Shown here piece after piece: positions 23,944 through 40,379 of a DNA stretch of 64,000 nt. The DNA lies in IMG/VR virus record IMGVR_UViG_3300031414_000001, positions 240,437 through 304,436 of that record; one strand, written 5' to 3'. A model generated the notes under the pieces. That model saw nothing but the letters and a program-made list of their open reading frames with translations. It was not told the DNA's origin and made no database searches. How positions within the stretch are numbered: the stretch's first letter is position 1; each line of letters starts with the position of its first letter. Position numbers and translations under genes: made by a program. The stretch comes from a virus (lineage: Duplodnaviria; Heunggongvirae; Uroviricota; Caudoviricetes).

Positions 23944-24126
23944 GTTTACTTCCTCGTGTTGGTTTATGTGTTAAGTATACTCCACCAGCAGAAGAACGCA
24001 AGTACTTTTTACGATTTAATTTATAATATTTTTTGGACGGATCTTGCCACCCTATAGGGTTTGTGCGTTTCGCCGCATTGATAGTACTATAACAAAAGGG
24101 CTAACCGAAGTCAACCCCTTTTTGAA

Positions 24127-24324
24127 TTAAAAATCGCAATGTACTGCGTCTTCACCCTGGCCGTGCGGGTGCAGAATGTTCTGGACTTCTTCGAAAACAT
24201 CATTGTACACGTTGGCGTTTTCTTTGGTATACTCACCAATGACCACTTCCATTGCCTCATTAATGCCGAGGTGTTTACGTGCCAGTACGTTGTTTGCCAG
24301 TTGCTTGATTCTTTCAGTAGCCAT
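24127..24324 (-). CDS. hypothetical small protein (65 aa)
   Basis: ORF with GGAGAGAAAC RBS 7 nt downstream of an early promoter +1. Confidence 0.5.
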   Translation of the reverse strand: MATERIKQLANNVLARKHLGINEAMEVVIGEYTKENANVYNDVFEEVQNILHPHGQGEDAVHCDF

Positions 24325-24354
24325 TTTGTTTCTCTCCGTTGTTTCAGTACTGAT

Positions 24355-24383
24355 AGTATATGACAGGGGCTAACAGTTGTCAA
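24355..24383 (-). promoter_or_regulatory. early sigma70 promoter embedded in terminator hairpin (TTGACA-N17-TATACT, then ATCAGTACTGAAAC)
   Basis: Reverse complement reads ggggTTGACAactgttagcccctgtcaTATACTatcagtactgaaac. The GGGGUUGACA/UGUUAGCCCC arms form the stem. Confidence 0.6.
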
Positions 24384-24395
24384 CCCCTAATTTGA

Positions 24396-24704
24396 TTAAT
24401 CCAGTAAGCCCATACGTTCAGCAACCTGCCAGGCTTCTGATCCGTACACTGGTTCAATCTCATTCCAGTGATCAGGGTTCAAGCTTCCACCAGCGGCGAG
24501 ATGTTTCTCAATTGCCAGGATACGGCGATTTTGTTTCTCACGTACTGCCTGTTGTTCGTGGAGTTCGTGAGTCAGTTCGCTGGAAGTTTTCAGGGCAATG
24601 CGTCGGCCTGTTTCTGTATCTTGACCAACGATGTAAAAGCTTGATGCTTCTTGACCGTTATACTCTACCAGGTCATGACGTACAAAAAAGGTTAATCTAG
24701 ACAT
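24396..24704 (-). CDS. hypothetical protein (102 aa; start set at MSRLTFF with AGGAAGTAAACA RBS)
   Basis: ORF 24396..24818; the internal Met has a strong SD directly downstream of promoter +1. Confidence 0.45.
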   Translation of the reverse strand: MSRLTFFVRHDLVEYNGQEASSFYIVGQDTETGRRIALKTSSELTHELHEQQAVREKQNRRILAIEKHLAAGGSLNPDHWNEIEPVYGSEAWQVAERMGLLD

Positions 24705-24737
24705 TTGTTTACTTCCTGTTGTTGTTTCAGTACTGAT

Positions 24738-24766
24738 AGAATAGCAAAGGGGCTGAACTATGTCAA
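24738..24766 (-). promoter_or_regulatory. early sigma70 promoter in terminator hairpin (TTGACA-N17-TATTCT)
   Basis: Reverse complement reads GGGGTTGACAtagttcaGCCCCtttgcTATTCTatcagtactgaaac. The 8-bp stem GGGGUUGA/UCAGCCCC contains the -35. Confidence 0.6.
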
Positions 24767-24781
24767 CCCCTAATTTGTACT

Positions 24782-25624
24782 TTATGCGGCATCTACTAAT
24801 GAAGTTGCCAACTGCCACAATTTAGAGTTAAAGTCTAAATTCTTGTCGATGTTAGTCACGCCGCGAGTAGTACGGCGACGGCCTGTATCACTGCGGCCTG
24901 ATTGTCCACCAGCCATTACGTTCTGTTGTACGATGTTAAACGTGCTGTAAAGGCTGTTGCTGTTGCGATCAGTACTGTTCACGTTGCGAGTATTCAACAA
25001 CTGTTCAGGACTGTACAGGAAGTTGATCCCTTCGCCTGGTTTTGGTAAACCTTCTTTAGCGAAGTAACCAGCAACGGCAAATGATTTGCGTTGTTTGTCG
25101 TCTAACTGGATGCGTGACATTTCGCCTTTGTAACGGTCGATAAGGTCGAAGTCTTTAACAACCTCGAATACACCTTCGATCACGTCATCCATGATGTTCT
25201 GGCCTTTGTGATAGATCTTAGTGTTGCTTTGGGTGTTACCCATTACCAGACCATTAGCACAAACAAAACGGAATTGCCCGCTAATCAACTGATAAGCACT
25301 TGTGCCATCGTTGGCGTTAAGAAGGATGATTTCATTTGCTTCACCTTCTTTCATACCAGGTTGACGGAAACGCAACATATGCTTTGTGAATTCGCGTTTT
25401 GATTCATCGCGTACACGTGCCTGAGTTGCGAACATCGGGAAATAGTTTTCCTGAGCAAGACGATCAATCACGTCGATAGTTGGCACTGGTGCGAAACGTG
25501 CTGAACGTGATTCGTGTGCATCGTACTGGAATACGGACGGCACTACTTCCAGGAGTTCAGTTCTGGTCAATGGACGGTTTTCTTTGATAGCTTTACCGTT
25601 GATACCCTGATACATTTTAATCAT
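24782..25624 (-). CDS. DUF932-like phage/plasmid-associated protein
   Basis: 280 aa; segment QLISGQFRFVCANGLVMG resembles the conserved core of the DUF932 family. Confidence 0.4.
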   Translation of the reverse strand: MIKMYQGINGKAIKENRPLTRTELLEVVPSVFQYDAHESRSARFAPVPTIDVIDRLAQENYFPMFATQARVRDESKREFTKHMLRFRQPGMKEGEANEIILLNANDGTSAYQLISGQFRFVCANGLVMGNTQSNTKIYHKGQNIMDDVIEGVFEVVKDFDLIDRYKGEMSRIQLDDKQRKSFAVAGYFAKEGLPKPGEGINFLYSPEQLLNTRNVNSTDRNSNSLYSTFNIVQQNVMAGGQSGRSDTGRRRTTRGVTNIDKNLDFNSKLWQLATSLVDAA

Positions 25625-25700
25625 GATTCGTTCCTCTCGTTTGGTGTAAGGTAATAGTACTGGATTCTGTTTATGTTGTCCAGTACTATTTTGAATTTAA

Positions 25701-25940
25701 TTACTCGATTCCGCCATCTACAGGCCAGCAATCACGAATGAATTTAGAACGGGATGGATCATCTTTCAGTGTCTTTGTCAAGAGTACTGCGTGATCTTCC
25801 GCACCTTTTTCAGTACTGAATTCCGCACCAGGTTGATAGTGCTGGCGGTTGTTGTCGTGGTCGAGGGCTACAACGTCGAACGGGCGAGCGTCGCTATCAG
25901 ACCAGACTCTTACTTTAAATTCAATTCCTGATTTTGCCAT
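25701..25940 (-). CDS. hypothetical protein (79 aa; start at MAKSGIEF after ~170-nt leader)
   Basis: The ORF track's longer N-terminus is translated leader; the RBS sits before the internal ATG. Confidence 0.45.
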   Translation of the reverse strand: MAKSGIEFKVRVWSDSDARPFDVVALDHDNNRQHYQPGAEFSTEKGAEDHAVLLTKTLKDDPSRSKFIRDCWPVDGGIE

Positions 25941-26115
25941 TTTGTTTTGCCTCTGTGCTGTTTCAATAACTTCATTATACGTTATCCTGGTTTGAATGCA
26001 AGTACTATTCACGTTTTAATTTATAAATTTTTTACTGGACAGATATACAGTACTAATAGATTTTGAATACAGTACGCCACCCTATAGGGTTAGTCAGTTT
26101 CGCCTGATTGATAAC

Positions 26116-26144
26116 AGTATAGCAAGAAGGGCTGAACGGGTCAA
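26116..26144 (-). promoter_or_regulatory. early sigma70 promoter in terminator hairpin (TTGACC-N17-TATACT)
   Basis: Reverse complement reads GGGTTGACCcgttcagcccttcttgcTATACTgttatcaatcaggcgaaa. Confidence 0.55.
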
Positions 26145-26519
26145 CCCTTTCTATTAAAATATTTGCATTTCTTTTGCTACTGCCTGGCTGTAATAATAAA
26201 GAGCATACCAGGGCTTGACAAACGTTGTGGTGCAGTTATTAATATCTGCGTGGTTAAGTGTTAGTACTCCGTGTTTAGAATACAATCTAACTTTGCCGTT
26301 TCTGAATGATTTAAGTTCACGCATGATTAGAATACCAGGAAAAAGGAAAGTACTGTAACAATTGCGAGGATCACAATTTGTTCCATATGTTTAGCTTCAA
26401 TGTGTGCTAAACTTTCTTCTGTATACTCTACAACATATTTTTCTTTCATGTTTGCTTCCTCTGTTTCAGTACTGATAGGATAGCAAAAGGGCTTAACCTA
26501 AGTCAAGCCCTATTTTGAA

Positions 26520-27098
26520 TTAAAGATAAGTTACTGACGCTTCACGCGGATCTTCTTCAAAATCCATATCATTAGCGATGATAGTTTGTTTAACTTGTTC
26601 ATCGCTGATAAGATCGTAATACGCTGTATCTAAATCAGAGTAGTATTCTTTACCCTGTTCAGTGATAAAGCCGTCGATTTCTTTTTCAAGTTCTTCATAC
26701 ATTTCAGACTTTTTAGAAGTCATTTCGATATACCATTCACCGGACAACTCTGCTGCTGTAGTGTTGTAGTGAACATAACGTGAACCGTGATCGCGGCGTA
26801 CTTTACAGGTAATATCTTTAATGCGAATATGCTCATGTAAGCAACGGTAATGCGTCCAGCGTTTTTGTGAACGTAAAAACTTCTCAATATCCACATTTCC
26901 AGCCGTGAAACTTGCACCGTCGCCTTGTGAACAAAACCCGGAGTACTGAGATTCTACGTCTTCAAAACCTACAGATTCCAGGATTGAATGATGTTTTTCT
27001 TTTATCCAATCATTCCAATCAGGATAATCGACGTTAATATCTCTGTTCAGTTCAATTGCTTTAGCTTGCTGTTCTGCGTTCAGTTCGTTAAATTTCAT
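26520..27098 (-). CDS. hypothetical acidic protein (192 aa), possible anti-restriction-like
   Basis: Acidic, Asp/Glu-rich early protein; start set at MKFNELN. Assignment is speculative. Confidence 0.4.
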   Translation of the reverse strand: MKFNELNAEQQAKAIELNRDINVDYPDWNDWIKEKHHSILESVGFEDVESQYSGFCSQGDGASFTAGNVDIEKFLRSQKRWTHYRCLHEHIRIKDITCKVRRDHGSRYVHYNTTAAELSGEWYIEMTSKKSEMYEELEKEIDGFITEQGKEYYSDLDTAYYDLISDEQVKQTIIANDMDFEEDPREASVTYL

Positions 27099-27343
27099 TT
27101 TGATATTCTCGCTTAAATGATTAAGGCCATTCCCTAATCCATGTAAAAGATTATACAGTACTGAACGAATAACGCAAGTACTATTCACGTTTTAATTTAT
27201 AAATTTTTACCTGTACAGATATACAGTACTTTCTAGTACTAAAATCCATTGGACGCAACTTGCCACCCTATAGGGTTAGTCCATTTCGCTGGATTGAATA
27301 CAGTATAGCAAAAAGGGCTAACCGAAGTCAACCCTTTATTTTC

Positions 27344-27565
27344 TTAATGCATCAGTTTATGATCAGCCAGTACGAACGGCGTAGCCAGTGGGCTAACCTT
27401 ATCGGCGATGATCTGGCGGTCGAATCCACCCAGGAAGTTATTCAGTAGGAGGACGCCCATCAGGTTAAACTGATTGAACTCACAGATCTGCCCGATCACT
27501 TCATTAGCTTTCAGGTCTGCTTCTGTTGGTTCAGTGAACAATTCTCTTAACATATCTTCAATCAT
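27344..27565 (-). CDS. hypothetical small protein (73 aa)
   Basis: Intact ORF. Confidence 0.4.
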   Translation of the reverse strand: MIEDMLRELFTEPTEADLKANEVIGQICEFNQFNLMGVLLLNNFLGGFDRQIIADKVSPLATPFVLADHKLMH

Positions 27566-27637
27566 GGTAGTGCCCTCGTTTGTTGTCAGTACTGATAGGA
27601 TAGCAAAGGGGCTGAACTATGTCAACCCCTTATTTGA

Positions 27638-28357
27638 TTAATATTCGTATCCGTGTTTTACTGCTGCTGATTTACGAATTTTCATAGAACGATCCAGCAC
27701 TACTTGAGCACGAGTTAGGAAACCAGCACTGACCGCCGCTTCACGTACTAACCAGTAAGAATGTGGATTCGTTTCGTCGTAAAATTTCCATTTAGTTGCT
27801 TCATGGAATGCGATCACACGATAAGCCCAGGCACGTTCTGAACCTTTAACATCTGCCTCTTGTGGTTCGCAGAATGCAGGAACATCGGCCAGGAAATAAT
27901 CATAGCGACGGTTATCATCACCGTGTGTACGTTTGTTGATATATTCAATATCGCTTAACAGAGCATCGCGGATCTTATCCTGGTTCAGTACTGAACAGGT
28001 GAGATTAAACATAGTAACAAGGCTTAACAGTTTGCCCCAGCGTTGTGACAGTTTAGAAACTAAATCATTGCGGTTATTGGTACGGTCAAGTCCTTTTTGA
28101 TCAGCACGTACACGCACAAACATCGGGCTAAAGAATGTGCTATATAAATCAGTATTCAGTACTTTACGCAGTACTGAAACACGTTTTTCAATGAAGATAT
28201 TTTCATTGTTAACAATGTCAAAGATTGAATTACCAGTGCCGCCAACGGAATTAAACAGAATTTCATCGGACAGGTTATTGAAGTCGATCACGTTGTTTCT
28301 TGCCAGTACTGCCAGTGATTCAGAATTCAGAGTTGCCAGGTTGATATTCATGTTCAT
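27638..28357 (-). CDS. hypothetical protein (239 aa)
   Basis: Long intact ORF. Confidence 0.5.
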   Translation of the reverse strand: MNMNINLATLNSESLAVLARNNVIDFNNLSDEILFNSVGGTGNSIFDIVNNENIFIEKRVSVLRKVLNTDLYSTFFSPMFVRVRADQKGLDRTNNRNDLVSKLSQRWGKLLSLVTMFNLTCSVLNQDKIRDALLSDIEYINKRTHGDDNRRYDYFLADVPAFCEPQEADVKGSERAWAYRVIAFHEATKWKFYDETNPHSYWLVREAAVSAGFLTRAQVVLDRSMKIRKSAAVKHGYEY

Positions 28358-28590
28358 TTTTAGATTCTCGCTTAATTAAAGGTTTTGATTTTTTTGAGAC
28401 TGTTTGCTGTCTCGATGTGTATATATTATCAAATACAAAACATAACGCAAGTGCTTTTTGATATTATTTTTAAATTCTTTTTATTTTTAAAGTACTGACG
28501 GAACTACCCACCCTATAGGGTTAGTCAGTTTCGCCTGATTGATAACAGTATAGCAAAAGGGGCTAACATATGTCAACCCCTGGAATGAAA

Positions 28591-28941
28591 TTAATTACAA
28601 TGATAAACGATCTTGACAGGAAGATAAACGCCGTGTTGTGGTACTGACGTTTTCATGGTAAACATAGATCCGGCCTGTTCGATTGTGCCAGTATCATTCC
28701 GATAGATACTGTAATCTTTCCAGAATTGAACTACGTCCATATCGGTATCTTTCACCTGAACTTCGATCACTGGTTCAGTAACAGTGATTTGAATAATATG
28801 TTCAGGAGCGGCATTATCAACTTTCTGATAGTTACCGTTGCCAGTACCTTGATACAGTGTGTAGCTAGGGCAAGTATAAACCTGAGTACCAGCGTTCGCA
28901 CATGAAGCCACCAGCAGACCTAACAGAAGAAGTTTTCTCAT
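28591..28941 (-). CDS. putative outer-membrane lipoprotein (signal peptide + lipobox LVASC)
   Basis: MRKLLLLGLLVASCANA: type II signal peptide with Cys at +1; 116 aa. Confidence 0.55.
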   Translation of the reverse strand: MRKLLLLGLLVASCANAGTQVYTCPSYTLYQGTGNGNYQKVDNAAPEHIIQITVTEPVIEVQVKDTDMDVVQFWKDYSIYRNDTGTIEQAGSMFTMKTSVPQHGVYLPVKIVYHCN

Positions 28942-29012
28942 TTCGTTGTACCTTGTTTGTTTTCAGTACTGATAGAATAACAAAGGGCTTAACCAAAGTC
29001 AAGCCCTAATTT

Positions 29013-29480
29013 TTAAACTGATTGTATTGCGTTCATGATAGCTTCATACTTATCATAAACATCATCTGATTCTGTGTTATGTGTTGCGTGAAATAATGCC
29101 TTGACAGCAGCTTGATATTGTGCTGGTGGCACGGCCTTTAATGCTGATGTAATATCTTTAATGTACGTTGGTTCGTCTTTGAACATAGTACGTAAGACAT
29201 TAGGCAGATCTTTAATAGATGGTTCTGGTGTAGGTTCGCGGCCTGGCATAAGTCCTAACGATTTAAAGTACTTTAACTTTTCATCTGGATTCATGCGGGA
29301 AGTGTCAACGCCTTGACTTGGCATTGTGTTTAGCTTACCTTGTAGCCCTGTTCCCTGGTTACGTGATCCGCGATCACCTTGTCCAGCGTCGTGACTGTTT
29401 GAACGTCTATTACTGTTTGACCACTTATCGGCGTGACCTGCCATTGTTGCATCTTTCTTGTTAACGAATTTTCCTGGCAT
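29013..29480 (-). CDS. hypothetical protein (155 aa)
   Basis: ORF directly downstream of a strong promoter. Confidence 0.45.
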   Translation of the reverse strand: MPGKFVNKKDATMAGHADKWSNSNRRSNSHDAGQGDRGSRNQGTGLQGKLNTMPSQGVDTSRMNPDEKLKYFKSLGLMPGREPTPEPSIKDLPNVLRTMFKDEPTYIKDITSALKAVPPAQYQAAVKALFHATHNTESDDVYDKYEAIMNAIQSV

Positions 29481-29509
29481 AATAAAAAAATCCCCTATGA
29501 CTATAGTTT

Positions 29510-29539
29510 ATTATAATCATATTTAGGGGATTCTGTCAA
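29510..29539 (-). promoter_or_regulatory. strong sigma70 promoter (TTGACA-N17-TTATAAT)
   Basis: Reverse complement reads cgTTGACAgaatcccctaaatatgaTTATAATaaactatag. Confidence 0.6.
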
Positions 29540-29778
29540 CGCCTAGCGATGAAATTGTTATATTGCTCATGAGTCATTAGGTTAAGTTTGCCATTGTCAA
29601 TCACAATACGTTCATTGCGTGATACTTCTATCACACTGAACAATCCACAATTCAGCTTTCGCGGTCTGATATTACCGCCATTAAATTCTCTCACAACACG
29701 AATAGCCTTGTCAAGTACTTTAGTCTGAGCTTTAAAATGTATTCGTAATTGTGTATCATCTACCATTATCTTTTTCAT
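29536..29778 (-). CDS. hypothetical protein (80 aa; start at MKKIMVDD)
   Basis: The internal Met follows the CAGGGGG/CCCCCUG terminator hairpin and an RBS. Confidence 0.4.
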   Translation of the reverse strand: MKKIMVDDTQLRIHFKAQTKVLDKAIRVVREFNGGNIRPRKLNCGLFSVIEVSRNERIVIDNGKLNLMTHEQYNNFIARR

Positions 29779-29828
29779 TGATACACCCCAGGAATAAACA
29801 GGGGGCATATAACCCCCTGTATCGCATT

Positions 29829-30179
29829 TTAAGAGACTTTAGCGAGATGGTTAGCCAACCGTACCGCCGTCATATTGCGACGCCATGAAACACGTACAGG
29901 CTTGTTATTTGGCGTTTTCAGTACTTGCTCGCCGATGATACCTGGCCGCTGACTTGTGATCACTTCGGCATCCTGTAGTACCTTCCATTGATCGTGGAGG
30001 TTCTGCGTTTCCTGATAAGCAGGAGAAAGAAGTGTTGCTTCGTCTGGTACTTCCACCAGCACCGCCCAACGCTCACCAGTTGCGGCATCTTTGCCAAAGT
30101 CTTTGAGCTTACCGTTCAGTACTTCAACGTTAGCACGAGCGAGAGTTCTGGTAGCGAAGTAGTGAGTCTGAATAGTCAT
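29829..30179 (-). CDS. hypothetical protein (116 aa; start at MTIQTHYF with AAGAGGAAAGAAAC RBS)
   Basis: The N-terminal 28 codons of the track ORF are leader. Confidence 0.45.
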   Translation of the reverse strand: MTIQTHYFATRTLARANVEVLNGKLKDFGKDAATGERWAVLVEVPDEATLLSPAYQETQNLHDQWKVLQDAEVITSQRPGIIGEQVLKTPNNKPVRVSWRRNMTAVRLANHLAKVS

Positions 30180-30273
30180 GTTTCTTTCCTCTTTGTGGTT
30201 TACAGGGAAATTTGTTTCCCGTCTGGATGTAAGTACTATAACAGTACTGACTGAGTAACGCAAGTATTATTTT

Positions 30274-30672
30274 TTACTTTACAAAAGCTTTGCCAGTTTG
30301 ATAAATGTCAATAGCTTTCTTTGCCATTTCGTGCCGTTCAACGTTCAAGCCTACAGCTTGCCACAATGCCTGGTACTGTCCGTTATTATTCGCAAGGAAC
30401 ATTACCATATCATTAATGGTCTTTAGCTTGTACTCGCGAGGATGTTCTTTATTATAACGTTCCTTCGCTCGATTGTACAGCCTTTTCATCTTGGGATCTT
30501 TAATAACCCCAAAACCAGAAGTCTTGCCACGGTTGATCATTTCGTTATAATAATCATCCTCTGTGCGGTACTTCCTACGAGCACCGCCACCAGCCGTATT
30601 ACGTGCGATCTCGTCAAGGGCAGTCGCTATGCCTTTCGGCAACCCATAAACATTTTGACCCATTACTTGCAC
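30274..30672 (-). CDS. hypothetical basic protein (132 aa)
   Basis: Intact ORF. Confidence 0.45.
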   Translation of the reverse strand: MQVMGQNVYGLPKGIATALDEIARNTAGGGARRKYRTEDDYYNEMINRGKTSGFGVIKDPKMKRLYNRAKERYNKEHPREYKLKTINDMVMFLANNNGQYQALWQAVGLNVERHEMAKKAIDIYQTGKAFVK

Positions 30673-31025
30673 CTTACAATGATCATGCCACCGCTGGCTT
30701 TTTCATCATCCATAAAGATTTTATAACCAGACAAATAATCGTCAATGTCCAGCACTCGCCGCCCTTCAATTGTATCACCATAACGAGATGATTTCAATAC
30801 TGATTTCGACACTTTAAACGAGCCGTTGTATTCATCACGGCTGTTACGTTCAAAATCATTGAATGAACATTCCAGGTTATCAGCCTTGTCAGTACTGTTA
30901 GTACTAACACCGTTTACAGTTACGTTAATAACTGGAGCAGACTTGACAGATTCAACATATCGACCTACATTCAGACCAACAGCGAAAGTAGTAGCAGCAA
31001 TGGCGATAACAGCGATTCTTTTCAT
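30663..31025 (-). CDS. secreted/periplasmic protein with N-terminal signal peptide (120 aa)
   Basis: Start at MKRIAVIAIAATTFAVGLNVG with ACGGAGAA RBS. The track ORF's MLIECEYFIM prefix is a repeated leader, not protein. Confidence 0.5.
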   Translation of the reverse strand: MKRIAVIAIAATTFAVGLNVGRYVESVKSAPVINVTVNGVSTNSTDKADNLECSFNDFERNSRDEYNGSFKVSKSVLKSSRYGDTIEGRRVLDIDDYLSGYKIFMDDEKASGGMIIVRCK

Positions 31026-31216
31026 TTTGATTCTCCGTTCAGTTGATGTAATCATTATAAAGTACTCGCATTCAATAAGCAAGTACTTTTGATAATGTTT
31101 ACTCGCAAGTGTAGCTATTGCCAGATTGACCCATTATCACCGTACAGTTATTATTTGAATACGTGACAGTACAACCACGTAAAGCAAAGAATACTACGGC
31201 GGCGATAAGTATAAAC

Positions 31217-31417
31217 TTAAGCATTGGCTAACTCCTGGTTATATGTTACCATCCACGCTTTTTCGTGGGCTTTAAACATCTTAGCAAGATCAAGATCCAT
31301 CTTGCGGAAATCGTGGTTATGTTCCCACTGTCTAGCACCTTTCAAGTACTTAGCACGGCTTTCACGGCTTTCACGTGCTGCCATAAGTGGGAAAGGAATT
31401 GCTGGCCCGATGAACAT
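31217..31417 (-). CDS. hypothetical protein (66 aa; start at MFIGPAIPF, ACGGAGGG RBS)
   Basis: The internal Met has a near-perfect SD; upstream codons are conserved leader. Confidence 0.4.
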   Translation of the reverse strand: MFIGPAIPFPLMAARESRESRAKYLKGARQWEHNHDFRKMDLDLAKMFKAHEKAWMVTYNQELANA

Positions 31418-31559
31418 ATTGCTACCCTCCGTGCGATTCACCATGAACCGCTTCGATGTAATAATAGTACTACACACCAATAACGAAAGCAAGTACTATT
31501 TTATAAAATGCAAAAGAAAAAGCCCCAATTAAGGGGCTTGATTTATTCAGTACTTTGTG

Positions 31560-32429: not shown

Positions 32430-32438
32430 AGTGTTACC

Positions 32439-32855: not shown

Positions 32856-33155
32856 TTAGCTGAAAATGTAACGTGATCCGCCGAAGTAATCAACGTTGAC
32901 CATAACAGCTTTATCTGTTACAATCGTGTGTTGCGTAGTCCAGCCAATCAGGTTAGTACCATCGAATAAGGCCATATGACCATAACCATATTCGACCAGT
33001 GCTGTAAAGTCGCCTTTTTCTTCAACGACACGCCAGGCATAGGGGGAACCGTCTTTCAGCCACAACGCACAATCTGAATAATCAGGACTGAGCTTATGCT
33101 CTTTGTCAGAAAGTACTTTTGCGACTTCTGCCATCAGTACTGCTAACTTATCCAT
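32856..33155 (-). CDS. hypothetical protein (99 aa; start at MDKLAVLM, GAGAGGATAGACAA RBS)
   Basis: The track ORF's MLIECEYFIM prefix duplicates the 31050-31100 leader sequence. Confidence 0.45.
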   Translation of the reverse strand: MDKLAVLMAEVAKVLSDKEHKLSPDYSDCALWLKDGSPYAWRVVEEKGDFTALVEYGYGHMALFDGTNLIGWTTQHTIVTDKAVMVNVDYFGGSRYIFS

Positions 33156-33233
33156 TTGTCTATCCTCTCGCTTAATGTGTAACTTCATTATAAAGTACTC
33201 GCATTCAATAAGCAAGTACTTTTGATAATGATT

Positions 33234-33422
33234 TTACGCCGTGCGGATCACTGTGATATTAGTATCAATATCAATTGATGTTCCCACTTCCAGATCGATG
33301 ATAGCACACAATTCATCGTTGGTCAAATCTGGTACAGTACTGATAACATCCAGGAGATTTAACCGATGATCAGTGTTATCATCGTTGCCGATAGTGTATT
33401 CACGTTTGACCATCTGGATCAT
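33234..33422 (-). CDS. hypothetical small protein (62 aa)
   Basis: Intact ORF. Confidence 0.35.
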   Translation of the reverse strand: MIQMVKREYTIGNDDNTDHRLNLLDVISTVPDLTNDELCAIIDLEVGTSIDIDTNITVIRTA

Positions 33423-33628
33423 GCCGGAACCTCTTGCGTCGATTCTTCCCAGGAAGATTTAACCATCGGCGTTTGCCCGCTTTTTTTCCAACGGGCAATC
33501 TCTTGCTCCGCGTCGTGGCGTGTATCATGTGCTGATACATACGTACCGCAAAAACGAATTACGAATTGCTTTTTCGGTGCACCAGTAAACTCACCTGCTA
33601 CGTTGTAACGACGATCTTTTTGAGCCAT
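33419..33628 (-). CDS. hypothetical small protein (69 aa)
   Basis: Intact ORF with 4-nt overlap. Confidence 0.4.
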   Translation of the reverse strand: MAQKDRRYNVAGEFTGAPKKQFVIRFCGTYVSAHDTRHDAEQEIARWKKSGQTPMVKSSWEESTQEVPA

Positions 33629-33715
33629 GATAACTTCCTCTTAATTAATGGTTATTGCGTTTCAGTAAGTTCATTATATAGTACTCGCAGAAGAAAGCAA
33701 GTACTATTAATGGAT

Positions 33716-33952
33716 TTACAAAGAAATAACTTTGTGATACTCGCCATGCGTCAAATCAGACACATATACTTCATTGCTGTTATTCAGCTTTTCAGTACTG
33801 GTGATCACGTTGCCGTGATACGTTTCATTCGCCCAGGTTTGGATCTGCTGGCTGACTTCTTCCAGATTGTCAGATCCTGCCAGTACTAACAGTTTATCAG
33901 ATCCAGCAATCGCCGTGCCAGTACTGCTTACAATGACTTCGAATTGTGGCAT
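33716..33952 (-). CDS. hypothetical small protein (78 aa)
   Basis: Intact ORF. Confidence 0.4.
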   Translation of the reverse strand: MPQFEVIVSSTGTAIAGSDKLLVLAGSDNLEEVSQQIQTWANETYHGNVITSTEKLNNSNEVYVSDLTHGEYHKVISL

Positions 33953-34224
33953 GATATATCCTCTTAATTAAATTCAACAGACAACATTATAACAATAAAG
34001 ATAAACAAAAGAAACTCTACTTTACGACTCATTTCTTTACCCTCGTTTGCCCTTCCATGTAATACATATTACCAGATTCAAAAACAAAAGCAAGTACTTT
34101 TTATGATTTAATTTATAACTTTTTTTGAACGGATCTTGCCACCCTATAGGGTTAGTCAGTTTCGCCTGATTGATAACAGTATAGCAAAAAGGGATTGAAC
34201 TTGTCAACCCCTAATTTTAGTACT

Positions 34225-34530
34225 TTACAAATCACGCACCGCTGTAGTATGCGTAATGTATGGGGCAGAACCGCCGATCAATTCTACCTTTGCCATCAGG
34301 GATATATGATCCCCTGCTGTTGGTAATGCTAACGCTTCCTGTACTGTGATCACTTCACCGAAAGAGTACTGATATTGTACAAAGGCTAACCAGGTATTAA
34401 AGATCTCGCCCGGTTTCCATCCGTGCTGTACTAAGCACACATTATCAATTACAATCGGTTTACCTGTATGATCTCTCGTAGTACAGGTATAAGTAAATGC
34501 TTTCGCGAAGTTATCAATGTTATCAGACAT
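34225..34530 (-). CDS. hypothetical protein (101 aa)
   Basis: Intact ORF downstream of a conserved leader module. Confidence 0.45.
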   Translation of the reverse strand: MSDNIDNFAKAFTYTCTTRDHTGKPIVIDNVCLVQHGWKPGEIFNTWLAFVQYQYSFGEVITVQEALALPTAGDHISLMAKVELIGGSAPYITHTTAVRDL

Positions 34531-34771
34531 TTTCTAATGTTACCTTAAGAGATTGTGTCATACGATTTCGCATTGCTTTTAGTACCATGCGACACGCTAA
34601 CACTTTGCCTTTATCATCCAGACGTTTAAAGCCTGGCCGTTTCATTGTATGGGATTGTAATTGAGTCCAGTTATCGACCCTTTGCCCCTTGCGATAGATT
34701 ATACAATGAATCTTGTCAGAAGTACAAGTAAAAATTACAACTAATCTTTTAGTACTATAGAATAGATCCAT
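34523..34771 (-). CDS. hypothetical protein (82 aa)
   Basis: Intact ORF. Confidence 0.4.
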   Translation of the reverse strand: MDLFYSTKRLVVIFTCTSDKIHCIIYRKGQRVDNWTQLQSHTMKRPGFKRLDDKGKVLACRMVLKAMRNRMTQSLKVTLENV

Positions 34772-34819
34772 AAAGCCCCTACAACACGTTTTAAGAGGGG
34801 GTATATTGCCCCCTATAGG

Positions 34820-35197
34820 TTACACGTCTACAGTATCATAAACATTACCTGATGCGATCCAGACGCTGAATTTTGGCATCTTATCCCATTCAGCCATAGT
34901 CAGACCGAGATCGTGGAGAACGTTAGTATTTGCCATACCTGGTACATTGTGAGCAGTACTGTACAACTTTCCATTGTACTGATACGCTAAACACATTTTA
35001 TGCTGATTGACAACGCACAACATAGAAGTAATCAGGGTAGTACAGGCGAAACGTTCCCGTACTAATGACAATTCAGTACTGATGCGTTTATTCAATCTGT
35101 CAACTTCTTTATTACATTCAGCTTTTGTTTTCCCCATCATTTCGATATGGGAAAGTGCACCTACAATGTCAGCCTGGATTGTGAAGATCTTATTCAT
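34820..35197 (-). CDS. hypothetical protein (125 aa; start at MNKIFTIQ, AAAGGAGTAAACC RBS)
   Basis: The internal Met has an excellent SD. Confidence 0.45.
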   Translation of the reverse strand: MNKIFTIQADIVGALSHIEMMGKTKAECNKEVDRLNKRISTELSLVRERFACTTLITSMLCVVNQHKMCLAYQYNGKLYSTAHNVPGMANTNVLHDLGLTMAEWDKMPKFSVWIASGNVYDTVDV

Positions 35198-35388
35198 GGG
35201 TTTACTCCTTTCGTTTAGTGTGAATACATAGTAAGTCATTACAGCAGTTAAAGCAAGTACTATTTGAGTTTTAATTTATAATATTTTCTGGATAGATCTC
35301 GCCACCCTATAGGGTTAGTCCATTTCTCTGGAGTGATTACATAGTACTATAAAAGGGATTGAATAGTCAACCCCTCTTTTGTAAAGAT

Positions 35389-35571
35389 TTAAACTTCTTT
35401 CCAGCGTCCATTATAGAACGTATGCGTTTCAATATACATGTTGTTAATGTTGCTGATATATCCTACACTATCAGCAGCCCGCCGTGTAGCAGCATTCTTT
35501 GCCCCACGTTCGGACTTTGCCTGGATAGGGTAAGCCTTACTACCGATCCCGATTGCGTATTGTTTAGCCAT
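35389..35571 (-). CDS. hypothetical small protein (60 aa)
   Basis: Intact ORF. Confidence 0.35.
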   Translation of the reverse strand: MAKQYAIGIGSKAYPIQAKSERGAKNAATRRAADSVGYISNINNMYIETHTFYNGRWKEV

Positions 35572-35749
35572 GCTTCACCGCCTTGATTGCGTTAACCGCA
35601 ATAATTCCTTTACATTCGCGAGGCAAACGGCATTCACATAACCAACGGGAAATACCGCCAACATAACGAGCCGTAGGGCATTTGTTCGCGTTCTCCTGAG
35701 TGAACAAAGGCCATTCAACATTACCCCAGGTAGGTCTAACAGTTTTCAT
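35564..35749 (-). CDS. hypothetical small Cys-rich protein (61 aa)
   Basis: Intact ORF; CxxxxxxxxxC..CxC pattern. Confidence 0.35.
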   Translation of the reverse strand: MKTVRPTWGNVEWPLFTQENANKCPTARYVGGISRWLCECRLPRECKGIIAVNAIKAVKHG

Positions 35750-35826
35750 TTTTAAAACCTCGTTTGCTTAAGTGATAACTCATTGTAAAGTACTTGCCAG
35801 GATTAAGCAAGTACTTTCGAAATGAA

Positions 35827-36213
35827 TTATAGATCTTTTTTGCGTTTTACGTCTGCCAGGTTTTCAGATACTGGAATATCATGTTCACGACAAAAACGGG
35901 ATAACGTGCCACAATCAGGAACTGGATAAGTACAGGCAGCATCGAACAACGCCAGGGCAGTTTGATCGAAACAACGCTCATAGCCATATTGGAATGTATC
36001 TTGTGCCAGGTCGATCCACACTGTACCATCTTCTAACGGGCGATTGTACACGTTCGCTACAAGCTCGTTAGCACGTTCTACAGGCACCAGGACGCTAACA
36101 TATACAGAATGATATGTGTTACCATCACCACGGTTAAACCAGCGTTTCGCGGTCATAGTGACGGCGTGAACATCGGCCAGGTTAACAGTACTGAAAATAG
36201 TTCTATTGGTCAT
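35827..36213 (-). CDS. hypothetical protein (128 aa)
   Basis: Intact ORF. Confidence 0.45.
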   Translation of the reverse strand: MTNRTIFSTVNLADVHAVTMTAKRWFNRGDGNTYHSVYVSVLVPVERANELVANVYNRPLEDGTVWIDLAQDTFQYGYERCFDQTALALFDAACTYPVPDCGTLSRFCREHDIPVSENLADVKRKKDL

Positions 36214-36220
36214 AATAATC

Positions 36221-36391
36221 TCACTTAATGTTATTGGCTGCTACAAAGTCAGGGTGTTTAGATTCAAACCACTGCATGACTTCTATTCTATCAGTACCTA
36301 CACCGAAGTGCAAGAACTCTTTTTCGATTTCATCATCATTGTTAACGGGAACCAATGAGAACAATTCCCACAACTTCAATAACTCCGCCAT
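36221..36391 (-). CDS. hypothetical small protein (56 aa, below ORF-track cutoff)
   Basis: Reverse complement reads GGAGTAAACAGC-ATG MAELLKLWELFSLVPVNNDDEIEKEFLHFGVGTDRIEVMQWFESKHPDFVAANNIK. Confidence 0.4.
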   Translation of the reverse strand: MAELLKLWELFSLVPVNNDDEIEKEFLHFGVGTDRIEVMQWFESKHPDFVAANNIK

Positions 36392-36486
36392 GCTGTTTAC
36401 TCCTGAGTGATTACCCTATACCGCTTATTATACAGATTACTCATTTACGATCAAGTACTATCTCGTTTTAATTTACTTTATTTTAA

Positions 36487-36512
36487 AACAAAAAATGCCC
36501 CTCGATCTAGGG
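36487..36512. terminator. bidirectional-looking hairpin terminator (GCCCCUcgaucuAGGGGC)
   Basis: 6-bp GC stem flanked by an A-run upstream and an AT-run downstream. Confidence 0.45.
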
Positions 36513-37072
36513 GCATTAATTGGTGAATAAGGTTTCCTTTCAGAACGTCTATAATGGCACTAATGCGATTATAGAACTTCACACCTACGCGGCAATTTAA
36601 TATAAGTAGTTTGTTTATAAAATTGAGTACCGGATAATCTTTCAGTACTAACCACAATCACCCTGTAGATGTGCTTTCGCTTTGTGGTTCCTGGTATAGA
36701 CTTACCTTGTGTGCTATACGTCTTAGGGTTCTACGTACTGCCACCAGGATATCAGCCTGATGGTTCAAATCTTAACTCCTTTGGCGGCTCGCCGTGTCGT
36801 TTCGATGTAGCTATATTATCATAACCAGCGAACCGATCAAGCGATTTAATTACTTTTTTTCGATTCTTTTTCCTTGCTTTTCTTTTTCAGTACTGGCATA
36901 ATATCTACATACCAGCGAAATGGGAGACTCTAGAGAGTGGCAAGTTGCGTCTAAAATTTATATAAAAAGCAATGGACGGATCTTGCCACCCTTTTGGGTT
37001 AGACCATTTCGCTGGATTGATAGTACTTTAACATAAGGGGCTAACCGAAGTCAACCCCTGTTTTGTAAAGAT

Positions 37073-37414
37073 TTACATTGCTTCGATGACTAATTTTAAT
37101 TCATATGAACTAAAATGTTTCTTGAATAATTGTTCAGCCTGGGCTTTACTTTCGGCGTCAATTATGATTGAGTCTTCACCGCGATCCGTGCCGTAGGTTA
37201 TCGCGAACCCACGACGCACGATTTCTTTTGTTGGCAGGTGAATAGTACCGTTACGCAACAATTGCCCTTCTGGATCATTTGCGATTGCCTGGAGATCTAC
37301 TTCAACGTAAAGTTCATCGTTGAACAATTCCACAATCGGATCAATGTTCCCTCTTTTGTGTGCGATTTGTTCCAGTTGGAAAAGTACGCCTTTCAGTTCG
37401 CTTAATCTCATCAT
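37073..37414 (-). CDS. hypothetical protein (113 aa)
   Basis: Intact ORF. Confidence 0.45.
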   Translation of the reverse strand: MMRLSELKGVLFQLEQIAHKRGNIDPIVELFNDELYVEVDLQAIANDPEGQLLRNGTIHLPTKEIVRRGFAITYGTDRGEDSIIIDAESKAQAEQLFKKHFSSYELKLVIEAM

Positions 37415-37493
37415 TTTCGTTTTGCTCCGTTGGTTGGTGTGATTACATAGTACTATAAAGGGCTTGAAACAGTCAAGCCCTAAATTGTAAAGA

Positions 37494-38156
37494 TTATAAC
37501 TTTTCTAACGCTTCCTGAATCCGTTCCTGTAAGTTAGTCGTGACAATGTTTTCCAGTGTCAGATCGTCCGGGTAGTTAATATCTGAGTTTTCCAGTACTT
37601 CCCCCAGGGTTGGATCTTCCTGTACAATCAAGGCCGCCAGGTTAGGCCAAATTTGATTATACTCAAAATCCAGAACATCCCAGACGGCTTCCTGTACTGA
37701 ATCACGCCATTTCATTTCTGATAACGCAAGGTTATAGTAATGTTCATACATGGTAACAGTGATCGGCGTTTCCATCTTCTGGCGGTAGTACTGAATCAGA
37801 CGATCCACCAGCTTGATCCGGTTCGCACCGTGGATCGTGTCGTCGTCGTACAAGTTACGCTGAGCAGTGTACGCAATACGCATATGATCGCGATTGTCGT
37901 TACTCATACCCTCCACCGGATAGGCATTATCTAAGCCCATTTCTTCAAAGGCATCACACAAAAATTCCCAACCGATCCCTGTTATGTTGTGGTCCGGCGT
38001 TTTGGCGTATACATGCCAGCAAATGCCGAAAGAAGTAGTAAGGTTAAACGGCTTACCTTTAACATTAGTGTAAGTCTCGCCACGGTCTAAACAATCTTTC
38101 ATTTGTTCCAGTACTTCCAGAACCATTCTATATTGCTCTAACTTAAATAAGTTCAT
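37494..38156 (-). CDS. hypothetical protein (220 aa)
   Basis: Long intact ORF. Confidence 0.5.
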   Translation of the reverse strand: MNLFKLEQYRMVLEVLEQMKDCLDRGETYTNVKGKPFNLTTSFGICWHVYAKTPDHNITGIGWEFLCDAFEEMGLDNAYPVEGMSNDNRDHMRIAYTAQRNLYDDDTIHGANRIKLVDRLIQYYRQKMETPITVTMYEHYYNLALSEMKWRDSVQEAVWDVLDFEYNQIWPNLAALIVQEDPTLGEVLENSDINYPDDLTLENIVTTNLQERIQEALEKL

Positions 38157-38296
38157 TTTGTTTTCCTCTCGTTTCGATAAGTTCTATTATCCATATTCGA
38201 ACGAACTATGCAAGTACTAATTTACTTTTTTGATGCAAAAATAAAACCCCTTCTAAAACGCTCTGTAACGAGTTCTAAGGGGTTTTATATGTTAGC

Positions 38297-38566
38297 TTAT
38301 GCCTTTAATGATTCTGCGTTAAAAGCCCCGCTAATGGGCTTACATTGAAGATTTACGGCATAGTTTACTTTCTTGTGGATGATATACATACACGAATCAA
38401 ATTGATGATTGTAAGGCATATCATAGATCCGACGCTGTACCAGTACGCCACCAACTACAAAGGCAAGATAGCCGCTAAACTCCGCTGTATATCGCCCCGT
38501 CTGCGTCATTGTCTTTGCGATCCTGGTACGTGGATCAATCAGGTCTGAAATAGGTTTCAATTCCAT
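38297..38566 (-). CDS. hypothetical protein (89 aa)
   Basis: Intact ORF. Confidence 0.4.
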   Translation of the reverse strand: MELKPISDLIDPRTRIAKTMTQTGRYTAEFSGYLAFVVGGVLVQRRIYDMPYNHQFDSCMYIIHKKVNYAVNLQCKPISGAFNAESLKA

Positions 38567-38711
38567 AGGCGTTTACTCTCAATTAAAAGGTAGTCTAAAA
38601 CGCTCTAGGATCGATTCTAAGCGTTTCTAACAGTACTGTAACCCGATTGTATATCAGTACTGTTAGAACTGCTTAAGGGGGCATTTAGCCCCCTTATTTT
38701 ACGCCGTGGGA

Positions 38712-39410
38712 TTACTCGCCAGCGTTTTCGGTTTCAGCTTCGCTTTCGGCTTCGACTTTATACGCTTTGATAAAGTCGTCACGGTCAAGGCCGCTTTCAG
38801 ACAGAATCGCTTTGAGTTCGTTACCCATGTTACCTTTTACCGGCATATCGTACTGTTTGCCGTTGTATTCAACCGTTACACGGTCGTAGCTGTTTTTCGG
38901 CTCTGCGGCGGCTTTCAGTTTCGCTTTCGCACCAGCTTCGACGGCGGCTTTAGCCATTGTCAGATCCATGCCTGAATCGAGCAGCAGTTTCAGCATCGCT
39001 TTCTTTTCTTCTTCCATCGCGGCGTTGGCGGCGGCGGCTTCGGCTTCACGCTGAGCTTTCAGGGCGTTGCGGTTCGCTTCGCGGTCTGCTTTGCGTTTAG
39101 CGATGTTTTCCGCTTCACGTTCCAGGACAGCAGGGATCAGCGTTACAGTCGCAGACAGCAGGCGGGAAATGATTTCCACGTTGTCGGACTTGTCAACCAG
39201 GTAATCAGCCAGGGCAGCCGCCTGAGTGTTTACGAACGCCGTTACATCGCCTTCGAATTGTGCCAGTACTTCAGGGCTGTGCGACTCGCCTTCTTTCAGG
39301 GTAGCCAGTACCGGAGCAGACGCCAGCACAATGCTGTTCAGGGTTACTTTAGGAGCTTTAACAGCAGTTTCAACGGTAGCAGCAACAACAGTTTTGTTAG
39401 ACTTAGACAT
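38712..39410 (-). CDS. Ala/Glu/Lys-rich protein encoded on a GC-rich island (232 aa)
   Basis: Long ORF whose local GC is visibly higher (about 55%) than surrounding DNA. Low-complexity A/E/K repeats (AKAAVEAGAKAKLKAAAEPK). Confidence 0.55.
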   Translation of the reverse strand: MSKSNKTVVAATVETAVKAPKVTLNSIVLASAPVLATLKEGESHSPEVLAQFEGDVTAFVNTQAAALADYLVDKSDNVEIISRLLSATVTLIPAVLEREAENIAKRKADREANRNALKAQREAEAAAANAAMEEEKKAMLKLLLDSGMDLTMAKAAVEAGAKAKLKAAAEPKNSYDRVTVEYNGKQYDMPVKGNMGNELKAILSESGLDRDDFIKAYKVEAESEAETENAGE

Positions 39411-40379
39411 AATATGTACCTTCTTAAAAGTGATTGATTAATTTGTTTGTCTGATTCGCTCTTGCGTTTCAGTGATTACATCTTACTACGTTTCGTTTCT
39501 TTCGGTCAAGGACTTTTTCAACTTTCTAGAAACTTTTTTTCGTTTCATCTCCAGGCGGTAGATAGGACGCTAACAGTTAGTTAGCCTTTATAACGCTACG
39601 TTGCCTTTGTCGGTCATACGCTGTAACAGTACTATCTATTCTAGCCCTGTTACCGTTTCCTATCATCCGGCGAACCTTACCGCCTTTCGATGATTGACAT
39701 TCTACACTACTCAATCTAGCAGTCAAGTACTTTCTCAAATCTTTTTCGCGTTTCCGCTTAAGTCATTGTTTCAGTACTGAATGCCAGGTTTTTAAAGAGC
39801 GGTGTTTCGTGTCGTTGGAGCTATACTATCATACAGAACGAACCATGCAAGGACTTTTTCACTTTTTCATTAAAATAGTTTCGTTCCTCGCTTTCCTTCA
39901 TTATATGCACTTCCTGGTTCCTGTATCGAGTTCTAAGCCCTTTAACAGTACTAACATACACATTCACCAGGGATCGAACTACAAACGCTTAAACGGCTTT
40001 ATATTACGTATAAGGAAGGGCTAAAAAGTTTTGTAAAGATTGTAGAAAGTACTGGACAGCAGATCCCGAATAAGGCATAATAACTACATAGACGCGAGAA
40101 AGCGGAGACCCCAGGGGGTGGCAAGTTGCGTCCAAAATTCGTATAAAAAACTACAGACGGATCTTGCCACCCTCTAGGGTCGCCCATTTCGCTGGTGTGT
40201 GGATATAGTACTATAATCCGGCCAGGTCTGTCAAATTTATTTTTATTGAAAAAAGTACTTGCATTCGTCGCTCAGTATGATAATATAGCTCTGTCAACAC
40301 GAAAAGACAGCTTTCGATTCTGCCTGGTACTAACCAGACGCGGAAGGGGAGCTAATGGAAAAATGACAGAAAAAAACCA

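Follow-up and report, generated by a model that had tools for sequence, protein, structure and literature searches.

Rak2-like phages are among the largest cultured phages, and we know of nothing that has been established about the control of their early genes. Promoter-early stem-loop (PeSL) cassettes, small intergenic elements that join a consensus sigma70 early promoter to a terminator stem-loop, are known from the T4-like phages RB49/phi1, PST/T4, and nt-1/KVP40 (Arbiol 2010, PMC2839356; Comeau 2014, PMC4122927), and in PA5oct, a related jumbo phage, two highly expressed non-coding RNAs are located in the terminal repeat (PMC7318152). The relevant passages of the paper on phage CBB list RpoD-like promoters with an UP-like element and make no mention of hairpins or of the unit described below (PMC5259590). 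Here we analyzed 64,000 nucleotides of a virus of the Caudoviricetes (the window; positions 240,437 to 304,436 of IMG/VR record IMGVR_UViG_3300031414_000001), in which a first-pass annotation, made from the sequence alone, had noticed a module recurring between minus-strand genes at eight sites. The intergenic spacers of this early region are assembled from three reusable parts: a PeSL-type cassette, a structured unit of ~50 nt, and a second kind of promoter, here called type B or P2. As read from the alignments presented here, the unit is a new RNA motif that was previously undescribed.

The stretch at 24–30 kb of the window shows 87–93% identity to Xanthomonas phage XbC2 and Erwinia phage Kaldavass, with more distant kin in Serratia phage BF, Yersinia phage fHe-Yen9-04 (Yen9-04), the Erwinia pEa_SNUABM phages, Pectobacterium phage CBB, and Cronobacter phage GAP32. 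By these alignments the source of the window is a Rak2-like jumbo myovirus, like all of the listed kin. Window position 41149 aligns with position 1 of XbC2, and the Kaldavass record starts at the equivalent of window position 22773. The direct terminal repeat of XbC2 comprises 17,581 bp with T5-type ends (PMC11273794), and the first 22,456 bp of the CBB record are annotated as terminal repeat. Based on the record-end alignments and the repeats known in XbC2 and CBB, we infer that positions ~22773–41149 of the window (~18.4 kb, limits by alignment) form a direct terminal repeat that holds the early region and all units found.

A structured unit downstream of early promoters

In order to define the unit, 36 copies from the window, BF, Yen9-04, and pEa_SNUABM_12 were aligned, and a covariance model built from the alignment was run with cmsearch. 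The 17-mer CTAACCCTATAGGGTGG, with up to three mismatches, has seven matches in the window where 0.11 are expected, while the model identifies 11 units, eight on the minus and three on the plus strand, and one further weak match inside a coding sequence that is probably false. All eight sites of the first-pass annotation were thereby recovered, seven by CTAACCCTATAGGGTGG and the eighth, a variant at 40146–40206 that carries CCCTAGAGGG, by the covariance model; the "at least 8 copies" noticed there become 11 by the addition of three plus-strand copies that had been missed (32745–32805, 36901–36961, and 40082–40142). The unit opens with a 5'-terminal hairpin (H1) that has any stem of 3–5 bp and a G(C/A)GAAA loop, followed by a linker of 4–5 nt and a second hairpin, H2 (ACCC-N3-4-GGGU), whose GGGUG strand could instead be paired with a YRYCY segment further downstream (H3). 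In the directly read copies (window, BF, Yen9-04, pEa_SNUABM_12, CBB, and Escherichia coli phage fEgEco12) the -10 hexamer ends 8–9 nt before H1, and the transcript start is therefore predicted 1–3 nt before H1. With a looser pattern, a promoter-like site was identified directly upstream of 69 of 69 units in eight genomes.

On the minus strand, units are located at 24026–24087 (H1 TGCG-GCGAAA-CGCA, H2 ACCC-TATA-GGGT, 3' segment GGCAAGATCCGTCC; cmsearch 70.1 bits), 26056–26117 (H1 TCAG-GCGAAA-CTGA; 63 bits), 27242–27303 (H1 TCCA-GCGAAA-TGGA; 66.2 bits), 28487–28548 (H1 TCAG-GCGAAA-CTGA; within a 930-bp cassette that lacks a counterpart in XbC2 and Kaldavass), 34118–34179 (65.2 bits), 35281–35342 (H1 TCCA-GAGAAA-TGGA; 72.4 bits), and 36965–37026, where the H3 hairpin is followed by ATTGCTTTTT. 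The last of these faces the plus-strand unit 36901–36961, which is preceded by the promoter CCTTGC-N17-ATAATA (promoter and unit 36872–36961) and has a compensatory H2, CUC-UAGA-GAG (59 bits). A second pair is formed at 40.1 kb by the leftmost early promoter and its unit (40146–40234, minus strand; TTGACA-18-TACTAT, H3 then GTAGTTTTTT) and by a plus-strand promoter and unit directed towards the genome end (40053–40142; TGGACA-17-CATAAT). The module is thus present at 36.9 and 40.1 kb as first annotated, but each of these sites is a convergent pair of two inverted units with a promoter each, and the hairpin that had been reported for all eight sites is lacking at the 40.2-kb copy, which has a promoter only. 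The third plus-strand unit is part of a predicted stand-alone small RNA gene at 32716–32860, with a perfect promoter (TTGACA-17-TATAAT, 12 of 12 consensus positions) and, at 32824–32847, a strong terminator (AGTACTGG-N8-CCAGTACT with U-rich tail; 32824–32857 with the tail), giving a predicted RNA of ~110 nt. This promoter-unit-terminator gene is also present in BF, Yen9-04, CBB, GAP32, and XbC2, and is kept in at least four genera. None of the plus-strand units has a same-strand gene downstream.

In H1, at least 18 distinct stems were observed (TCAG/CTGA, TCCA/TGGA, TGCG/CGCA, AGACA/TGTCT, TCGAA/TTCGA, GCCA/TGGC, CGC/GCG, GGAG/CTCC, and more) with complementarity kept, and the G(C/A)GAAA loop is present in 73 of 93 distinct sequences. 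Each of the three inner pairs is unpaired in no more than one of the 93 sequences (0–1) and shows 23–32 double changes; the covariation score was reached by none of 500 shuffles, and the signal was lost when partner columns were slid. The same is seen between orthologues compared by blastn and MAFFT, as H1 of the plus-strand unit 36901–36961 reads CCAGCGAAATGG in the window and CCGGCGAAACGG in XbC2 and Kaldavass, an exchange of A-U for G-C at ~92–95% identity. A covarying hairpin is thus present in the aligned copies, where the first-pass annotation had written 'GGCGAAACtga' without recognizing it. The variation cited there as compensatory is of another kind: the variants CCCAAAAGGG and CCCTAGAGGG of the palindrome CCCTATAGGG are loop changes, and CCCCAGGGGG belongs to the plus-strand units.

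The H2 stem is nearly invariant, with rare compensatory CUC/GAG and CCU/AGG variants, and its closing pair is A-U in 82 sequences, G-U in 10, and another combination in one. Since the closing G-U exists on the sense strand only, a sense-strand RNA is favored over duplex DNA, and since the H2 loop has 3 or 4 nt of free sequence, so that its length would alter the spacing of half-sites, a dimeric DNA operator is disfavored. An operator or roadblock, where a phage protein on CCC-N4-GGG and the adjacent RTCYA tunes or shuts early promoters and might also bind an 8-bp repeat array near the genome end, would agree with the position at +20 to +60, with the CCC...GGG inverted repeat, and with the resemblance of the 3' segment (CCGTCTA / GTATCTAT) to the RTCTA repeats of that array at 40377–40500. 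However, H1 keeps complementarity and not sequence, the occurrence of G-U but no A-C 'pairs' is strand-specific, the H2 spacer is either 3 or 4 nt, and the unit is strongly asymmetric with one fixed orientation relative to the promoter, and we regard this explanation as very unlikely. The covariation favors a unit that behaves as sense-strand RNA. Of the shared post-initiation control point first proposed, a conserved RNA-like element just after +1 thus stands, whereas its operator version is disfavored by the covariation.

In RNAalifold predictions, the GGG strand is preferentially paired with the YRYCY segment of H3. The five partner columns of H3 vary in base about 50/50 and are 98–100% purine/pyrimidine-consistent, compared with ~50% for loop columns, while single-sequence folds choose H1 and H2. 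The two mutually exclusive and constrained pairings could be those of an attenuator in which H2 is the antiterminator and H3 with a U-tract the terminator, gating transcription from the upstream promoter (P1) into the gene, and H3 scores as terminator-like at 36991–36974, 40172–40155, and 27268–27251. These three are the only window units with a T-rich tail after H3, most others being followed by an A-run; H3 is weak, its G-U pairs numbering up to three, and H2 prevails in all folds, which makes attenuation highly improbable in our view. GGA and GGAG motifs of the CsrA and RegB types in the H3 loop were also considered; they occur in CBB- and BF-type units and are absent from most window units.

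With the covariance model, the unit was detected in two phages of the genus Mimasvirus, CBB and GAP32, and three of Eneladusvirus, BF, pEa_SNUABM_12, and Yen9-04, as well as in XbC2, Kaldavass, and metagenomic relatives. One strong terminal copy was identified in the distant phage XaC1, and at least nine copies are located in the terminal repeat of fEgEco12 (Asteriusvirus). By these model matches the unit is conserved across five phage lineages. All copies in CBB, XbC2, and fEgEco12 fall within the determined terminal repeat, and no unit was found outside the repeat region in the window or in 50 kb of BF. A scan of 185,579 bacterial and archaeal genomes for the consensus pattern gave no hit; Rfam 15 gave no match at gathering score over the whole window, and nothing relevant at E <= 10 over 23900–28700, which holds four units. 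A search of IMG/VR with the pattern AGNGAAAT-N7-ACCC-N4-GGGTG returned 15 single matches; as none of them obtained a score with the covariance model, they are attributed to chance. In the 27.2-kb module, megablast matches BF, Yen9-04, and two other Erwinia phages over a single segment, the 78 bp holding the unit 27242–27303, and the unit is thus better conserved than the flanking genes.

Stem-loop cassettes and type-B promoters

The first-pass annotation had read the 5' arm of the intergenic terminator hairpins as the -35 of a consensus sigma70 promoter, and this holds for 13 hairpins on the minus strand at 24.1–37.5 kb, here termed class A (GGGGTTGAC-loop-GTYARCCC, then a T-run, then the -10). 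In these cassettes the T-run is the spacer of a promoter of the form TTGAC(A/T/C)-N17-18-TA(T/A)ACT/TATTCT, with a consensus score of 9–11 of 12 at each hairpin. The stems comprise 8–10 bp with 4–6 G-C pairs and lie in intergenic DNA after a stop codon, and several are terminator-like with a T-rich tail. A consensus scan of the window gave 73 promoter-like sites, compared with 43 ± 6 in shuffled sequence, and 26 terminator-like sites compared with 15 ± 4, the class-A hairpins being among the best of both scans.

About half of the class-A cassettes carry the unit as an extra RNA element. These are located, all on the minus strand, at 24086–24118 (GGGGTTGAC-TTCG-GTTAGCCC with -35 TTGACT in the 5' arm, N17, and -10 TATAGT), 26116–26148 (TTGACC-17-TATACT), 27302–27335 (TTGACT-18-TATACT), 28547–28581 and 34178–34212 (both TTGACA-18-TATACT), 35341–35374, and 37025–37058 (TTGACT-18-TAAAGT). 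Short-form cassettes on the same strand are located at 24355–24388, where the hairpin is followed by ATCAGTACTGAAAC and a ribosome-binding site, and at 24738–24771, 26478–26511, 27597–27630, 28974–29007, and 37447–37480. The '+1 box' ATCAGTACTGAAAC, reported at first as a general +1 region, does exist, in three exact and two near-copies, but all of them belong to short-form modules. A further class-A cassette with the short-form '+1 box' (GGGCTTGACGACCGTCGAGCC...TATTATGACTGTACTGAAAC) was observed on the minus strand at 61165–61192, outside the inferred terminal repeat; on this account the cassette type, unlike the unit, is not strictly confined to the repeat.

A second hairpin class (class B) that encloses the -35, AGTACTTGC-N9-GCRAGTACT, is made from type-B promoters. 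It was identified on the minus strand at 35782–35815, where AGTACTTGC-N9-GCAAGTACT holds the -35 and is followed by TTTACAAT, and at 33673–33705, 33187–33220, and 31054–31087. A third geometry occurs on the same strand at 29489–29539, where the hairpin AATCCCCTA...TAGGGGATT, with T7 after it, encloses the -10 of a perfect promoter (TTGACA-18-TATAAT). A gene with a ParE-like toxin domain (29536–29808; Pfam E = 2.8e-11) directly precedes this cassette.

The type-B promoter itself, recognized when all intergenic spacers were read, has the form (A)AGTACTTGCn, 15–18 nt, TAnnnT, with an AT-rich block upstream at the position of an UP element. The minus strand of the repeat has about 20, the majority of which stand alone before genes without a unit. 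By its placement it is the downstream gene's own ordinary promoter. This dissolves the single leader of ~150 nt with two palindromes at fixed positions that had been described between hairpin and gene, since the AT-rich 'palindrome' and the following 'aaaagtacttgc' are the UP-like element and the -35 of an independent type-B promoter. The perfect 12-bp palindrome AATTTATAAATT, taken as a shared element, is present in two of the eight copies and is incidental, while the core shared by five of the eight is TTATAAATTAAA. Downstream of the units, P2 was identified on the minus strand at 23974–24006 (AGTACTTGCGT-N-TATACT after the UP-like block TTATAAATTAAA, followed by a ribosome-binding site and the gene 23943–23671), 25974–26006 (TTGCAT-N-TATAAT, with AATTTATAAATT in the UP-like block), 27150–27182 (TTGCGT-N-TATAAT), 28423–28455 (its predicted transcript opening with the hairpin GAGAC-N8-GTCTC), 34066–34098, 35228–35261, and 36813–36845, back-to-back with the plus-strand promoter. 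Phage T4 also has tandem early-plus-middle promoters, without a structured RNA module between them. As there, an upstream early promoter is combined with a second promoter close to the same gene, and P2 shares with T4 middle promoters a conserved box around -35/-30, but its sequence (AGTACTTGC) differs from the MotA box (TGCTTtA), and no homologue of MotA or AsiA was found, although none was looked for.

Other readings of the promoter-proximal sequences were rejected. The resemblance of CTAACCCTATAGGGTGG to T7/T3-type promoters fails because the spacing falls short by 5 nt and because each unit is linked to a sigma70 promoter; a TATAAT-like hexamer after H3 has no -35 at the right distance for a third promoter, and the ATG of a possible leader peptide in the AT block is not conserved.

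Comparison with close relatives showed that the cassettes are also sites of rearrangement. A minus-strand cassette of 930 bp (27630–28558), which contains a unit, P2, and a gene for 239 amino acids, is absent from XbC2 and Kaldavass, where the flanks overlap by 24 bp inside a PeSL hairpin; its borders are the hairpins at 28547–28581 (left joint) and 27597–27630 (right joint). Conversely, XbC2 and Kaldavass have an extra gene whose joint falls in the UP/-35 region of P2 at ~35250, and in XbC2 one unit has been replaced, together with its hairpin, by another paralogue. By these alignments the cassettes are recombination joints between relatives, and, as the joints fall in cassettes, the shuffling matches PeSL behavior in T4-like phages (PMC2839356, PMC4122927). 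The possibility raised at the outset that the conserved block is a DNA-level mobile repeat is hence half true, in that cassettes act as joints, yet the unit carries constraints of the RNA type.

Taken as sequence, the hairpin and promoter part is a new occurrence of the known PeSL kind with another geometry, and its activity is predicted. With the cassettes of T4-like phages it shares the small intergenic combination of consensus sigma70 early promoter and terminator stem-loop, the density in regions rich in small ORFans, and the indels between close relatives that are jointed inside cassettes. The hairpin encloses the -35 here, whereas in RB49 the stem-loop is mostly placed over the -10 or in the spacer between the two hexamers, a geometry with one example in the window (29532–29489). 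The host genome is that of a Rak2-like jumbo phage, the cassettes lie in a long terminal repeat and fall into two sequence classes, and an extra RNA unit is added.

Candidate functions of the unit

The genomic context of the unit was compared for the 69 copies in eight genomes. In 38 cases a type-B promoter lies within ~25–70 nt after the unit, with a small variable 5' hairpin, a ribosome-binding site, and a gene next in order; 22 copies are members of convergent pairs, each with its own promoter and with no open reading frame (ORF) between them; five are followed by an intrinsic terminator, and the rest have variant second promoters. None leads directly into a ribosome-binding site. Of all instances, the convergent pair close to the genome end is conserved most widely; it is present even in XaC1 and in fEgEco12, the latter having a near-identical copy of the plus-strand unit 40082–40142. 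Long-range pairing between the arms of a pair was rejected as a selected structure, as the partner H1s usually differ and the complementarity of the arms is lost in Kaldavass.

Because no unit directly precedes a gene, plus-strand and convergent copies are gene-less, and one complete promoter-unit-terminator gene exists, we tentatively take the unit, at somewhat less than an even chance, for an autonomous domain of early non-coding RNA that is produced in many copies and recognized by a protein via H2 and the invariant loop. In such a scheme the G+C-rich PeSL hairpin would end the transcript of the upstream gene, with the -35 of a host sigma70 promoter in its 5' arm, and host RNA polymerase would transcribe the unit from 1–3 nt after the start site. 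The unit RNA could take the form of stand-alone terminated small RNAs, of convergent pairs, or of a detachable 5' leader, the partner protein would read the H1 loop and H2, and in copies with a U-tract after H3, an H2/H3 exchange may contribute to fixing the 3' end. The type-B promoter with its UP-like AT block would then serve the downstream gene with transcripts that lack the conserved block. In PA5oct, the genes of the terminal repeat are transcribed early by host RNA polymerase. The promoters of the window repeat would be used early by the host enzyme, and the hairpins would terminate. Both phages would have non-coding transcripts in a long direct terminal repeat, those of the window being predicted; the RNAs of PA5oct, however, are 236–451 nt long, are unrelated in sequence to the unit, and are not described as a repeated motif.

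Several observations weigh against the autonomous RNA domain. The start sites, 3' ends, and abundance given for the unit RNA are predictions throughout. In most tandem copies no terminator separates the unit from P2, so that either processing would be required to yield a discrete small RNA or the unit would stay on the mRNA. The hairpins are small, with folding energies no better than those of shuffled sequences (z -0.2 to -0.9), and the evidence for structure therefore comes from covariation rather than from stability. The pairings H2 and H3 are incompatible, and H3 is built solely on one-sided, wobble-compatible changes; the paralogous units are related and not independent samples, so the shuffle tests overstate independence. 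The similarity of the 3' segment to the 8-bp RTCTA repeat near the genome end leaves room for a DNA-level role of that segment. Finally, Pfam and PHROGs profiles identified no binding protein or N-like protein among 20 repeat-encoded proteins. A KOW2_Spt5 match on an acidic protein of 90 amino acids downstream of the last unit scored 20.2 bits, below the cut-off of 28.9, and was judged to be due to chance.

The position of the unit immediately after early promoters, on the sense strand, and the terminator-like hairpin at the end of nearly every repeat gene could also indicate a processive antitermination element acting in cis, by which the nascent unit binds its own RNA polymerase, alone or with a phage or host factor, and reads through the PeSL terminators. 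In its two-hairpin layout, the variable short stem and invariant G-initiated purine-rich loop of H1 recall boxB, a hairpin with a GNRA-like pentaloop to which an arginine-rich peptide of the N type binds. As in the lambda nut site and the rrn leader, which are read as RNA, a short variable-stem hairpin with such a loop is placed just after early promoters, and RNA-level reading is proposed for the unit as well; its loop is a hexaloop (GNGAAA), and it differs from nut in its many copies, some of them without downstream genes, and in the lack of an adjoining boxA. No boxA (CGCTCTTA / GCTCTTTAACAA) was found next to any unit, and YGCTCTTTA occurs in the window at chance level (28 compared with 28.4 expected).

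The sole conserved boxA, of the rrn type, is located on the minus strand at 39800–39789, ~25 nt downstream of the first gene-ward type-B promoter (39855–39823) and inside an ORF-free stretch of ~890 nt. Its sequence in the window, XbC2, Kaldavass, CBB, and GAP32 is GCTCTTTAAAAA, and it is the exact E. coli consensus GCTCTTTAACAA in BF, pEa_SNUABM_12, and Yen9-04; in BF it is also followed 6 nt further on by AGACAAT, as in the rrn leader. The motif occurs once per repeat and is kept while its flanks diverge, which suggests Nus-factor antitermination of a long untranslated early transcript; we found no paper in the literature that ties boxA to these phages. Such an apparent use of host Nus-type elements elsewhere in the repeat would fit antitermination by the unit.

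The RNAs encoded by the put sites of phage HK022 are cis-acting antiterminators with two long stem-loops (~70 nt). They share with the unit two stem-loops encoded downstream of early promoters, and both could act without base-pairing to a target, but the unit is much smaller, with stems of 3–5 bp and 4 bp in ~40 nt, and has no sequence or Rfam relation to put. The put sites are followed by the genes to be antiterminated, whereas the units are followed by promoters or terminators: each gene-ward unit precedes a further promoter that would be superfluous for an antiterminated transcript, the units on the plus strand lack a gene to serve, and ~20 nt after one unit there is a strong conserved terminator by which its 3' end seems to be set. 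Antitermination by the unit in cis is accordingly regarded as rather unlikely.

Alternatively, H1, with or without H2, might be a generic 5' stabilizer shielding early transcripts from RppH- and RNase E-dependent decay, like the 5' hairpin of ompA. H1 begins 1–3 nt from the predicted start and tolerates any stem sequence, and the predicted P2 and short-form transcripts likewise open with small variable hairpins. A stabilizer would, however, not require an invariant hexaloop, a CCC/GGG hairpin, and a constrained 3' segment kept across five lineages, nor does it explain the gene-less plus-strand copies and convergent pairs, and we consider it quite unlikely.

Other features of the repeat and wider meaning

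All genes of the repeat are small and on the minus strand, and most are of unknown function; the 20 profiled proteins gave only Band_7, DUF932, and ParE-like domains and phage families of unknown function. Small ORFs overlap units at window positions 24047–24160, 34037–34207, and 39999–40187, and likewise in Kaldavass (CDS0005, CDS0010, CDS0014, and CDS0032), where some are annotated as hypothetical proteins; these are probably gene-calling artefacts over the RNA motif. A minus-strand stretch of ~730 nt at 39411–40145 has no credible ORF and contains three type-B promoters (39855–39823, 39731–39699, and ~39509–39480) and several hairpins. By analogy with the terminal repeat of PA5oct, it may encode further non-coding RNAs.

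Near the inferred left genome end, ~650–770 bp from it, ~16 head-to-tail repeats of 8 bp with the core RTCTA (CCGTCTAA, ACGTCTAG, CCATCTAG, etc.) were observed at 40377–40500, in a position conserved in BF-type phages; this core is resembled by the 3' segment of the unit (CCGTCTG / GTATCTAT). The array might be a packaging or end-recognition site, or an array for protein binding. The hexamer AGTACT, which contributes to the '+1 box', the type-B -35 box, the flank of the -10, and many hairpin stems, occurs 291 times in the window compared with 21 expected (14-fold). Its copies are distributed evenly over the repeat and the DNA outside it, coding sequence included, and it is enriched 15–22-fold in all relatives examined, while several G+C-rich 6-bp palindromes do not occur in the window at all. 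A site for a DNA-binding protein, a modification target, and restriction avoidance are candidate causes.

The results provide a parts list for the early region in a terminal repeat, with two promoter classes, composite terminators, a boxA, and a new RNA motif, and indicate that PeSL-style modular shuffling extends well beyond the T4-like phages. For annotation, the motif accounts for long 'empty' intergenic gaps over which spurious small ORFs are called. The unit combines strong covariation with a conservation exceeding that of neighboring proteins and is limited to DNA that is thought to enter the cell first, and its presence in E. coli phages means that standard E. coli genetics, Cappable-seq/Term-seq, and pull-downs can be used directly. 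A bolder proposal, which we hold to be doubtful, is that the unit represents a new class of multi-copy early RNA in Rak2-like phages, including the 121Q/fEgEco12 group of E. coli, that directly reprograms a host machine. If so, the unit RNA would modify the transcribing RNA polymerase, for example to make it terminator-resistant, so that it traverses or pulls in the terminal repeat, or would alternatively act as a stoichiometric decoy, titrating away a host protein for RNA binding or defence within the first minutes of infection.

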